A DNA stretch of 64,000 bases. It comes from a virus. The notes under the pieces are model-generated. The model made no database searches. It was given only the letters and a program-made list of their open reading frames with translations, and had not been told where the DNA came from. Every line of letters begins with the position of its first letter. Position 1 is the first letter of the stretch. The DNA is taken from positions 4,814-68,813 of the IMG/VR virus record IMGVR_UViG_3300022911_000003; one strand, given 5' to 3'. Positions 8,585 through 40,913 of this stretch are shown in pieces. Position numbers and translations under genes: made by a program.

Positions 8585-9722
8585 TGGTGGGGGATCCTTC
8601 TTCGTCATCGTCCCAGTCTTGATCGTCATCTGCGCTTTCAGCCGGCGCATTGTCGTCTCGGCCGAACATTTCTTCGAACAGAACATCATCAGGTTCGACG
8701 GCCATATTTACCCTGGCCCATGGCACCGTGCCCCACTGCTCCCGCAGGCGGTGATAGTTGTCACATGCCTTGTTCAGCATCTTCTCGCCCCGCAAGTCGG
8801 TGAAGTCGCCCATCTTCCTGATGATTGGTGTCAGGACCGGTGCCGACGGACTCTTGGCGTTGTTGCTGGTCTTTTTGAAAAACAGGAACGTGAAGCCCCA
8901 TGTCTCGACATCGACCAGGCCCTTGAGCCAGTCCAGTTGCCGCGGGTTGGCGCCGAAGACCAAACCGTTGCGAATCTGGTCTCGCATAAAGACACGAGCG
9001 CGGCTGTAAATGTGCCTTTGCCCGGAGTAGCCCAGATCACGGATTATGCGGATGCAGGTGTAGACGTCTGGGCTTATTCCAAGCGGAACACGCTTTGCCA
9101 TGACGTGTTTGCCCATGCTCTTCAAGTCTATGATCTGGTCCGTCAGAAGCCTATCAAGCCTGGCCCGCATCCTGATTCCATCGAAGGTAAACAGGACTGT
9201 GACCTCGGCGAGACCTCCCTTGATCCACTTCCCGATTTCAGGGTGTGTGTGAACAAGCGCTCCCATAGAGTGGACGTTTTTGTAGGTCTTCGGCTTCAAC
9301 GGAGTTAATCCAAGACGCGCCTGTTCGGCTTTCCAATCTCTGGCGGCCTTTGGAACGTATGAGTCGAACGGTGACTCGACGTAGCGTTCATAAAATGTGT
9401 CGAACCCCTCAAGGACTATAGTATGAAGCGCCCTGCCGAATAGATACTCGTCGTCTCGCTCGCTTTCTTCCCGGTCAGGATTGTCCTTCGACGAATAAAA
9501 CCAATCCTCAGCCGTGTCGCTGGCCAGTATCTTGATGTCGGTCGAGCCGATTCTGTTCTGCACGAAATACAGATAATCGGGCATTCCTATGAAGGTGCCA
9601 TCCGGCAAATTGAAATATAGGTCAATCGCCTCGGCCAGGGTCAGCACGAGGTTGTCAACGTCGCCGTGGTCCTGCGCGACGGACTGGGTTTCTATGAGAG
9701 CGGGGAGCGTTTCTTGTGTCAC
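8574..9722 (-). CDS. PD-(D/E)xK exonuclease VIII (RecE/DUF3799-like)
   Basis: FGRALHTIVLE, RARLDRL and IIDLKS motifs; GGAGG RBS; same operon as RecT. Confidence 0.8.
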   Translation of the reverse strand: MTQETLPALIETQSVAQDHGDVDNLVLTLAEAIDLYFNLPDGTFIGMPDYLYFVQNRIGSTDIKILASDTAEDWFYSSKDNPDREESERDDEYLFGRALHTIVLEGFDTFYERYVESPFDSYVPKAARDWKAEQARLGLTPLKPKTYKNVHSMGALVHTHPEIGKWIKGGLAEVTVLFTFDGIRMRARLDRLLTDQIIDLKSMGKHVMAKRVPLGISPDVYTCIRIIRDLGYSGQRHIYSRARVFMRDQIRNGLVFGANPRQLDWLKGLVDVETWGFTFLFFKKTSNNAKSPSAPVLTPIIRKMGDFTDLRGEKMLNKACDNYHRLREQWGTVPWARVNMAVEPDDVLFEEMFGRDDNAPAESADDDQDWDDDEEGSPTNAE

Positions 9723-24385: not shown

Positions 24386-24672
24386 TGGAACAGCCCCGCA
24401 TAGATATGCCAAAAGAAAGGTCCGTCCTGAACCGTGCCGACATAGGATACCAACCCGAGGCCCGGAACGAAGTCGTCGAACGGATGGCCCGTGCCGATGA
24501 AAAAGCACGTCATGGTTCTCGTGTCGCTCTGTCCAACAGTCTTTTCGACATACAGCGTAGGCTGGCCGTCGCGCAGTTGCGCCCCGAGAATCTGGGTGTC
24601 GAGCGGGACAAGGAGGCGGTTTCCTAGTCCGGGAGTATAGGCCGGCACGGGGTAGTGGTGGATGACTTTCAT
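24382..24672 (-). CDS. Small conserved phage protein
   Basis: IHHYPV...GTGHP...YVGTVQDGPFFWHIY. Confidence 0.65.
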   Translation of the reverse strand: MKVIHHYPVPAYTPGLGNRLLVPLDTQILGAQLRDGQPTLYVEKTVGQSDTRTMTCFFIGTGHPFDDFVPGLGLVSYVGTVQDGPFFWHIYAGLFQ

Positions 24673-39348: not shown

Positions 39349-39560
39349 TGGGACGGGTACTGCACTTCAAAAAGCCGGAACCTGTTGTAGAGCCGCTTGC
39401 CGAGGTCATGGTCGTGATCAGCGTTACGGCTCGGGTCAAGGCCCGGCACGAAGACGTTATGAAAACGGCTCAGGCCATCGTGCTCGAAATCTGCGAAGAC
39501 GCGCACCTCTTGGGATGGACCTCGATCGAAGGCGAAGTCATCACCGACGGCTCTACATGA
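39348..39560 (+). CDS. Hypothetical protein
   Basis: TAATG overlap. Confidence 0.55.
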   Translation: MGRVLHFKKPEPVVEPLAEVMVVISVTARVKARHEDVMKTAQAIVLEICEDAHLLGWTSIEGEVITDGST

Positions 39561-39814
39561 GCCGGCCGACAGGAAAACCGGAATATAGGCTCGTCCTGGA
39601 AGCGGTACGGGACGAGATTCGCCACTTCGGCGCCACGGCAGAACTCGTGGTCGAGATGCCGCACCCCAAGATCGTTGTCACGCTTCAGGGCCTGACGCGG
39701 AAAATGGCTTTCGCCGGCAGTCCGAGGCGGGGTCAAGAAGACCAACTCCGTGCCATAAGACGTCAGGCCCGGCAGAAAATCGACGAAATGTGGATAGAGA
39801 TTACAGCGCTATGA
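39557..39814 (+). CDS. Small basic protein, possibly HicA-like fold
   Basis: PHPKIVV...FAGSP pattern; ATGA overlap. Confidence 0.4.
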   Translation: MSRPTGKPEYRLVLEAVRDEIRHFGATAELVVEMPHPKIVVTLQGLTRKMAFAGSPRRGQEDQLRAIRRQARQKIDEMWIEITAL

Positions 39815-39850
39815 TGCCTTGACCCGACCGCGTTGTGGCGCAATACCTAT

Positions 39851-39933
39851 CCCGTGTCGCGCTACCCTTCCCCCCAGGTCGAGGCACGACACATCGGGCC
39901 GCTGGTTCTCCGGATCAGCGGTCCTTTTCTTTT
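39851..39933 (+). ncRNA. Candidate small RNA with C-rich loop and its own terminator
   Basis: TTGACC-16-CAATAC upstream (39819); stem TGTCG/CGACA with loop CTTCCCCCCA; terminator GGGCCGCTGGT/ATCAGCGGTCC plus T-tract. Confidence 0.45.
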
Positions 39934-40098
39934 GCCATCCCCTGTGGATTGGGGGTAGGATTGAGACTGTGCGAAGCGGATACAGGAGTCCGTCGCAATG
40001 ACCTGCTGAATGCCTCTTTTTGTGCGTCCTTTGGATCGACACGGATTTGGGGCAACTGAAGACAGCGACCGCACACTCCCCATCTAGGGGATAGGAGA

Positions 40099-40333
40099 TT
40101 GCCTTCGGGCTATGATACCTGGCCGATCCGCAAGGGTCATAAATCCGTGACAGTTCCGCAAGGGGTCAGCGCGGTATAGAGAAGCGCCGATGGACAGCGC
40201 TCTGCCCCCGTCGAAAGGCGGGGGAGCAAGTTTTGCCTTCGGGCTAGTGAGGTTTGACCCAACGCATATGCGACAGGCCAGCACCTGTTTCTCTGCTGGG
40301 AGAGAAGGGTCAAGCATTTTTGCCTTCGGGCTA
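40099..40333 (+). repeat. Three exact copies of TTGCCTTCGGGCTA (40099, 40233, 40320)
   Basis: Read directly from the sequence; each forms a GCC-UUCG-GGC hairpin. Confidence 0.95.
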
Positions 40334-40338
40334 TGAGA

Positions 40339-40436
40339 TTGAGCGGCGGCGTTGACGGAAACGCGGCAAAACTAGATGCGTGGGCTACCCGGCGAGTGCT
40401 AGGTCCACTAGCCGGTATCCAATCCGGCCCGCTCAA
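40339..40436 (+). ncRNA. tRNA-like element with expanded anticodon region
   Basis: TTGAGCGG/CCGCTCAA acceptor stem, GCGT/ACGC D-arm, GCCGG-TATCCAAT-CCGGC T-arm. Confidence 0.6.
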
Positions 40437-40460
40437 TACCTCCCCGCTCTGTCGGGAATG

Positions 40461-40524
40461 AAGTGGATCGACTAGCGGTAAGTCACCCGTATAGGGCTTC
40501 GTAGGTTCAAATCCTGCTCCACTC
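40461..40524 (+). ncRNA. tRNA-like element with truncated anticodon arm
   Basis: AGTGGA/TCCACT stem, GACT-AGCGGTA-AGTC D-arm, CCC-GTATA-GGG mini arm, GTAGG-TTCAAAT-CCTGC T-arm; no encoded CCA. Confidence 0.7.
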
Positions 40525-40530
40525 GTGAAT

Positions 40531-40566
40531 CGCCAGGGGCTTCGGTCTCTGGCGGTTTTCTTTTTA
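40531..40566 (+). terminator. Intrinsic terminator closing the RNA locus
   Basis: CGCCAGGGGC-TTCG-GTCTCTGGCG followed by GTTTTCTTTTT. Confidence 0.85.
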
Positions 40567-40607
40567 TTGGTCCATGATGTGCGTCTGGCCGGGGAAGGAT
40601 CAGCATC

Positions 40608-40913
40608 ATGCACTACACCATGAGTCCAATTGTCGCCGTGGTCGTCGCGTTCTCTTACGTGATCTTCACGGTCCTGACCGTGTTGCATATCCGGGTCATT
40701 AAGCAAGACCGGGAATCCAGACTTATCTCTGCGGCCCTGATTGTAAAATGCAGTGCCTTGGCTTTTCTGTTTATGTCGTGGCTTATTCCGGACCATCCCT
40801 GGGTCAGCAGCATGAAAAATGTGCTCGGCTCCGTTGCTGCGGCCAGCCTGATCCTTCTTATCATGCTCAATTACCCAAAAATGGTCGCCGACCTGCTCGC
40901 AAAGAGGGGTTGA
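40608..40913 (+). CDS. 3-TM membrane protein
   Basis: GAAGGA RBS; three hydrophobic helices. Confidence 0.65.
   Translation: MHYTMSPIVAVVVAFSYVIFTVLTVLHIRVIKQDRESRLISAALIVKCSALAFLFMSWLIPDHPWVSSMKNVLGSVAAASLILLIMLNYPKMVADLLAKRG

Follow-up and report, generated by a model that had tools for sequence, protein, structure and literature searches.

The 60 nucleotides at positions 40254-40313 fold on the + strand into a perfectly paired four-way junction. We read it as part of an orphan, self-contained locus for a phage non-coding RNA on that strand, in which it would be one folded module and serve as a rigid structural or punctuation unit. We give this reading a probability of about 0.4. The junction itself is a real, compact structured module that has the topology of a cloverleaf and lacks the tertiary motifs of tRNA. 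It lies within the 64,000-nucleotide stretch of DNA that was analysed (the window), which makes up most of a 70,956-bp IMG/VR virus record. The source is an uncultured phage of siphovirus-like type; Alphaproteobacteria are the hosts of its nearest cultured relatives. Our structural statements about the junction and the locus around it come from nearest-neighbour energy models applied to this single sequence.

A sequence-only reading of this DNA had drawn a four-way junction at 40254-40313. The sequence that it quoted for these positions was confirmed, and the junction is indeed the MFE RNA fold of the + strand, with an energy of -24.5 kcal/mol and a z of -3.0 (1 of 200 shuffles is as good). 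The 7-bp closing stem (40254-40260 with 40307-40313) is followed by a 2-nt AA linker (40261-40262) and encloses three hairpins, all on the + strand: H2, with 3 bp (CGC-AUAU-GCG, 40263-40272); H3, with 5 bp (ACAGG-CCAGCA-CCUGU, 40273-40288, with the loop CCAGCA at 40278-40283); and H4, with 6 bp (UUCUCU-GCUGGG-AGAGAA, 40289-40306, with the loop GCUGGG at 40295-40300). As had been observed earlier, H3 and H4 abut with no linker between them, and the same is true of H2 and H3 and of H4 and the closing stem. The closing stem can be extended outwards by the pairs U40253.G40314 and G40252-C40315. All 21 pairs of the junction are Watson-Crick and none is G.U, so its reverse complement folds equally well: the - strand has an MFE of -24.7 kcal/mol (z -2.76), and folding with DNA parameters gives a z of -3.5 on both strands. 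Since the junction contains no G.U pairs and folds alike on both strands and as DNA, its own sequence identifies neither the strand nor the type of molecule.

By raw MFE, the junction ranks only in the top 2-3% of 60-nt windows. A second comparison took in all 64-nt windows of both strands and was restricted to folds in which a single closing stem encloses three simple hairpins. In the 64 kb, about 35 loci form such a closed four-way fold, and the junction is the most stable and the best paired of them (-25.5 kcal/mol, 22 bp). Chance alone would give a z of about -3 several times in 64 kb. A second four-way fold, at 24541, was dropped because the unannotated sequence there resembles coding sequence when judged by eye.

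The junction sits in a gene-free stretch of 790 nt (39815-40607) in which no gene is called in independent assemblies, and the flanking genes are all on the + strand. Two contigs from different ENA assemblies (ERZ27228593 and ERZ27228594) are identical over 1,399 nt, so the locus is not an assembly artefact. The last protein gene before the locus encodes an 85-aa protein (P0001; 39557-39814, + strand) and is called as a gene in ENA contigs. A strong intrinsic terminator of this upstream gene block, consisting of a 13-bp stem and a T-run, lies at 39896-39934 on the + strand. Its T-run is overlapped by a sigma-70-like promoter candidate (TTGCCA-18-TAGGAT, 39932-39961, + strand), recognised by consensus match only, from which the non-coding transcript would start. 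At the other end, a strong intrinsic terminator with a 14-bp stem, a UUCG loop and a T-run (40527-40568, + strand) precedes the next gene, which begins at 40608.

Between these sites, a UUCG hairpin occurs three times on the + strand, as copy 1, TTGCCTTCGGGCTATGA, at 40099-40115, as copy 2 at 40233-40249 and as copy 3 at 40320-40336. The sequence TTGCCTTCGGGCTA within it is present in three exact copies, beginning at 40099, 40233 and 40320, and is found nowhere else in the 71-kb record. The claim that the junction is bounded on both sides by this repeated hairpin holds, with the exact 14-mer of copy 2 ending 7 nt before the junction and that of copy 3 beginning 6 nt past it. The hairpin is nearly palindromic, which allows pairing between any two of its copies. 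Pairing of copies 2 and 3 extends the closing stem, and the resulting 112-nt fold is predicted at -42.0 kcal/mol, versus about -33 kcal/mol for the junction with two separate hairpins. The three copies offer mutually exclusive pairings. Directly after copy 3 comes a five-way junction (40338-40437, + strand), in which a stem of 9 bp closes off four hairpins (-43.5 kcal/mol, z -2.67). Next is a degenerate tRNA-like cloverleaf (40461-40525, + strand), which ARAGORN finds at the 80% threshold only. Its T arm (GUAGG-UUCAAAU-CCUGC) is canonical and its D arm contains GG, whereas its anticodon arm is reduced to 3 bp and 5 nt; the strong terminator comes immediately after this cloverleaf.

Two further observations were made on the sequence of this region. 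Relaxed ARAGORN predicts a permuted tmRNA in the locus, which we rejected for its implausible 27-residue tag. Separately, the end of the upstream gene (39808-39828, + strand) carries GCTATGATGCCTTGACCCGAC, which resembles the tail of the repeat together with the first bases of the junction (GCTAGTGAGGTTTGACCCAAC); this likeness may be the trace of a duplication or may have arisen by chance.

Taken as a whole, the locus is 31.6 kcal/mol more stable when folded on the + strand (MFE -260.4 versus -228.8 on the - strand), with 27 versus 10 G.U pairs, and UUCG, GCAA and GAAA tetraloops are present in it. Each module of the locus is somewhat better folded on the + strand, the terminator above all. 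As modelled, these features are signs of a + strand RNA, about 600 nt long, that consists of separately closed modules. They also bear on the reading in which the junction functions as DNA, as protein-binding palindromes or as a cruciform or single-strand fold used in replication or packaging. Such an element would be in keeping with Watson-Crick pairs throughout, with the equal folding of both strands and the DNA-parameter folds given above, and with the palindromes CCAGCA-N10-TGCTGG and TTGACCC-N46-GGGTCAA, and the three exact 14-mers nearby could be protein-binding sites. The clear + strand RNA signature of the locus (terminators, G.U asymmetry and tetraloops) argues against it, as does the distance to the genes concerned: about 22 kb separates the junction from the upstream genes for the DnaB-like helicase and RecT, and the gene for the large terminase, which has a Terminase_6C RNaseH-like nuclease domain and is accompanied by a Mu-type portal, lies 3.8 kb downstream with several genes in between. 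We consider a role at the DNA level very unlikely.

The locus is an orphan in all the collections that we searched. Rfam at gathering score gave no match in the 64-kb window, and at an E of 10 the region 39500-40900 gave noise only, with no pRNA, ROOL, GOLLD, OLE, raiA, manA or tRNA. A blastn search of the locus against 50,697 phage records returned no match. The 17-mer of the repeat has two matches in IMG/VR, neither of them homologous; both are single copies inside coding sequence, and we attribute them to chance. A pattern anchored on two repeats found one locus in IMG/VR (L084), whose repeats are different and CCTTCGGGCT-rich and which is non-homologous. In JGI metagenomes the same two-repeat anchor found 32 loci, which are CRISPR arrays, coding repeats and tRNA variable arms and among which blastn detects no homologues. 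The JGI/ENA metagenome contigs L086, L089, L092, L094, L101, L103 and L106 carry CRISPR arrays whose 36-nt repeat contains the 12-mer TGCCTTCGGGCT, and this 12-mer is common to the CRISPR repeat and the phage hairpin. An anti-CRISPR RNA that mimics the repeat was considered and rejected, since the CRISPR repeat sharing TGCCTTCGGGCT differs in both flanks.

Anchoring the search on neighbouring proteins gave the same result. The flanking proteins used as anchors in IMG/VR yielded no relatives. TerL anchors yielded 80 loci in IMG/VR and 5 in GTDB genomes, and nhmmer, blastn and covariance-model matches in these were all at noise level, the single-sequence covariance model and nhmmer having covered about 0.8-1.1 Mb of TerL-relative loci. 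The best relatives of a neighbouring 259-aa protein are 44-52% identical and have different genes downstream, and of the distant relatives of the 85-aa protein none has an RNA locus downstream. The closest TerL relatives in a large protein collection have 67, 65 and 58% identity, and the contigs of these closest relatives (L127-L130, 58-67%) contain no counterpart of the locus. L128, the contig of the 58% relative, is the only one with a comparable stretch upstream of TerL: its 101-aa membrane gene is separated from TerL by a gene for the small THIVI_2564 protein and then a minus-strand block. The membrane gene is preceded by just 27 nt (L128:7169-7196), leaving no large non-coding gap and no recognisable counterpart of the locus. 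The 101-aa proteins of L128 and the phage have the same length and match marginally (E 0.022), and given this marginal match and the unrelated upstream genes, the correspondence of L128 is positional at best. L128 also contains a 630-nt gap of unrelated sequence (8983-9613) in the divergent region upstream of TerL. The absence of the locus from L128, together with its own promoter-like site and terminator, suggests a lineage-specific, moron-like insertion.

We also examined the 85-aa protein encoded just before the locus. In a search of 5.8 billion proteins its sole match was the phage's own protein, and an exhaustive search found five weak relatives of the same size, which define a family of 75-91-aa proteins with invariant R11, H36, P56 and R57 in their alignment. 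The predicted structure is a helix, three strands and a helix, with a pLDDT of 84. Foldseek listed several double-stranded-RNA-binding domains (dsRBDs), all among weak matches (E 0.15-0.6); a wide structural search and Pfam did not bear them out, and identity as a dsRBD was rejected. As a lead, the 85-aa protein is a possible RNA-binding partner of the locus.

The cloverleaf topology of the junction brings it close to tRNA and to tRNA-like elements such as mascRNA and the tRNA-like domain of bacterial Y RNAs, with which it has a 7-bp closing stem, a 2-nt linker and a 5-bp second arm in common. The junction could be a relic or derivative of a phage tRNA gene, left over from a tRNA island and retained solely to mark a processing site for RNase P or RNase Z, in which case its loop sequences would be meaningless. 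The acceptor-like stem, the linker, the short first arm and the order of the four arms are all partly tRNA-like, the closing stem and H4 would form a coaxial stack of 12-13 bp comparable to the acceptor and T stems, and two tRNA-like modules lie downstream within 210 nt. ARAGORN in its very relaxed mitochondrial mode even reports 40254-40315, in a mode that is not specific, as it returns 18 'genes' in 821 nt. A search for bacterial tRNA with ARAGORN at default or at 60-80% thresholds finds none in the junction, at default it finds no bona fide tRNA gene in the 64-kb window, and the Rfam tRNA model is unmatched even at the relaxed E given above. The junction also departs from tRNA in its loops, AUAU, CCAGCA and GCUGGG, the two larger of which have 6 nt rather than 7; it has no T-loop or D-loop motif, no 7-nt anticodon loop and no variable region. 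Neutral decay, moreover, would not leave 21 perfect pairs. We regard a processing relic as unlikely.

The loops of the neighbouring hairpins H3 and H4 contain CCAGC and GCUGG, and we confirm the earlier claim that these are exact complements. For two random 6-nt loops the probability of such a match by chance is 0.004, or 0.034 when G.U pairs are allowed. The MFE fold of the locus has 20 hairpin loops; at least 5 consecutive Watson-Crick pairs would arise with a probability of 0.26 between any two of these and of 0.031 between any two that are adjacent. After this look-elsewhere correction (about 0.03) the complementarity is only modestly beyond chance, and we give roughly even odds to its being incidental or functional. 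A functional pairing would act as a tertiary lock or an intermolecular kiss rather than as an equilibrium switch.

The latter point bears on the proposal in the sequence-only reading that CCAGCA and UGCUGG form a competing hairpin and so make the junction a bistable switch. The 6-bp hairpin can form, and the part of the proposal that is not supported is the equilibrium: the full-length alternative fold, at -19.6 versus -24.5 kcal/mol, is 4.9 kcal/mol less stable, and the cloverleaf dominates the ensemble, its stem pair probabilities being 0.5-0.99 and that of the alternative pairing 0.0. In a bistable or kinetic switch, this hairpin would replace H3 and H4 and alter the options of the flanking sequence. 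With nucleotides 1-47 transcribed, the alternative (-10.9 kcal/mol) is 2.5 kcal/mol better than H3 alone (-8.4 kcal/mol). Its return to the cloverleaf would have to cross a barrier estimated at about 12 kcal/mol, so a transient trap is possible and a co-transcriptional intermediate with the alternative hairpin is conceivable in these models. Against the switch, no expression platform is visible that depends on the hairpin, the terminator being 214 nt further on; the hairpin would mask neither a start codon nor a ribosome-binding site, and almost no nucleotide of the junction is left unpaired to form a ligand pocket. A switch is the least probable of the readings that we weighed.

Geometry would limit what the two loops can do within a single molecule. 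The 5-bp CCAGC/GCUGG duplex, with four G-C pairs and one A-U pair, is worth about -6.8 kcal/mol. In known kissing complexes with at least five pairs, the stems stand at 120-180 degrees to each other. As H3 and H4 have only 5-6 bp and are joined without a linker, a full 5-bp kiss within one molecule appears impossible, and on this geometric reasoning all five pairs could be used only by pairing between molecules. Within one molecule, a partial contact in which two or three G-C pairs join the H3 and H4 loops is also plausible, since neighbouring arms of a perfect four-helix junction, such as that of the hairpin ribozyme, can lie next to each other. In parallel-helix loop-loop locks, such as L2-L3 of the purine riboswitch, contacts between the loops of such arms can stabilise the fold. 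The hairpin ribozyme and the purine riboswitch are members of families and contain either conserved internal loops or a ligand pocket; the junction has neither, and no catalytic or ligand-binding motif is visible in it.

Pairing of CCAGC with GCUGG between molecules is physically possible in these models, its physical premise being sound, and the module could in this way self-associate into dimers, rings or cages, the loop of one molecule pairing with the complementary loop of another. We consider this quite unlikely. The cofold model of the homodimer (-60.8 versus 2 x -24.5) reflects generic strand swapping of perfect hairpins, and we discount it as evidence. The comparison that had been offered for such pairing was with the rings of phi29 pRNA and with RNA nanocages. 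pRNA is a small phage RNA in which complementary loops on neighbouring junction arms pair between molecules to give dimers and rings; its core is a three-way junction, and in several pRNAs a kiss of 4 bp suffices (PMC4201828). The junction has two complementary loops on neighbouring arms as well, with a longer match that is exact over 5 nt and G/C-rich, and this is the only feature that the two have in common. As a claim of membership the pRNA analogy is contradicted by the unmatched pRNA model (RF00044), by a junction that is four-way rather than three-way and by the ordinary, nuclease-bearing terminase of the phage. The phi29 genome is protein-primed, and a phi29-type motor has an ATPase without a nuclease domain, whereas the Terminase_6C terminase and Mu-type portal found here make up a standard packaging system that needs no packaging RNA.

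The comparison with RNA cages is closer in setting, and as membership it does not hold either, the ROOL, GOLLD, OLE, raiA and manA models being unmatched. To our knowledge, ROOL and GOLLD have no protein partner. They are large structured RNAs of phages and prophages that often lie beside tRNA islands (PMC12286853) and that form homo-oligomers through kissing loops and A-minor contacts (PMC12286853; bioRxiv 10.64898/2026.07.01.735769). Such homo-oligomerisation through kissing loops by ornate phage RNAs beside tRNA islands (PMC12286853), and its occurrence in short RNAs also (bioRxiv 10.64898/2026.07.01.735769), would favour self-association here, as would arms whose shortness and tight joining seem to leave no room for a complete intramolecular kiss. 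The context of the locus resembles theirs in that it is phage-borne, has a length of about 600 nt and ends in tRNA-like modules, although the window contains no bona fide tRNA gene. Unlike them, it is a single sequence without a family, and its modules are closed separately, one after the other, instead of being interwoven into one fold. Self-association is further disfavoured by the modest significance of the loop match, by the failure to find homologues of the junction in the databases searched and by the other loops of the locus, which show no matching design except for one doubtful pair at its 5' edge. The more specific form of this reading, in which the junction is the self-association module of an unseen phage ornate RNA and reciprocal kissing assembles the ~600-nt transcript or an excised 60-nt unit, is in our judgement very improbable.

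We favour the reading in which closed multi-branch modules follow one another in a chain and the junction is one of them, serving as a rigid structural or punctuation unit. The transcript would carry, in order, a UUCG hairpin, a first module, a second UUCG hairpin, the four-way junction, a third UUCG hairpin, the five-way junction, the tRNA-like cloverleaf and the terminator. Within the junction, the closing stem would stack on H4 and H2 on H3, placing H3 and H4 side by side. We infer this geometry because perfect four-helix junctions, such as that of the hairpin ribozyme, are known to behave so, with sequence-adjacent arms of different stacks lying side by side. In this arrangement the complementary loops would be incidental, or would make a partial contact of a few G-C pairs that locks the junction, and a full five-pair helix would require a second molecule.

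ROOL, GOLLD and manA, structured phage RNAs of no known function that lie beside tRNA genes, were recently found to assemble into cages made of RNA alone. In this setting, the junction, with its complementary adjacent loops inside a modular RNA locus of a Gram-negative-type phage, would offer a small, easily synthesised test object for natural RNA self-assembly. Its value lies in a cheap in-vitro experiment and in a seed for future metagenome searches rather than in an established finding. If self-association were true, the locus would be a proteobacterial-phage counterpart of ROOL and GOLLD built on a different, modular plan.
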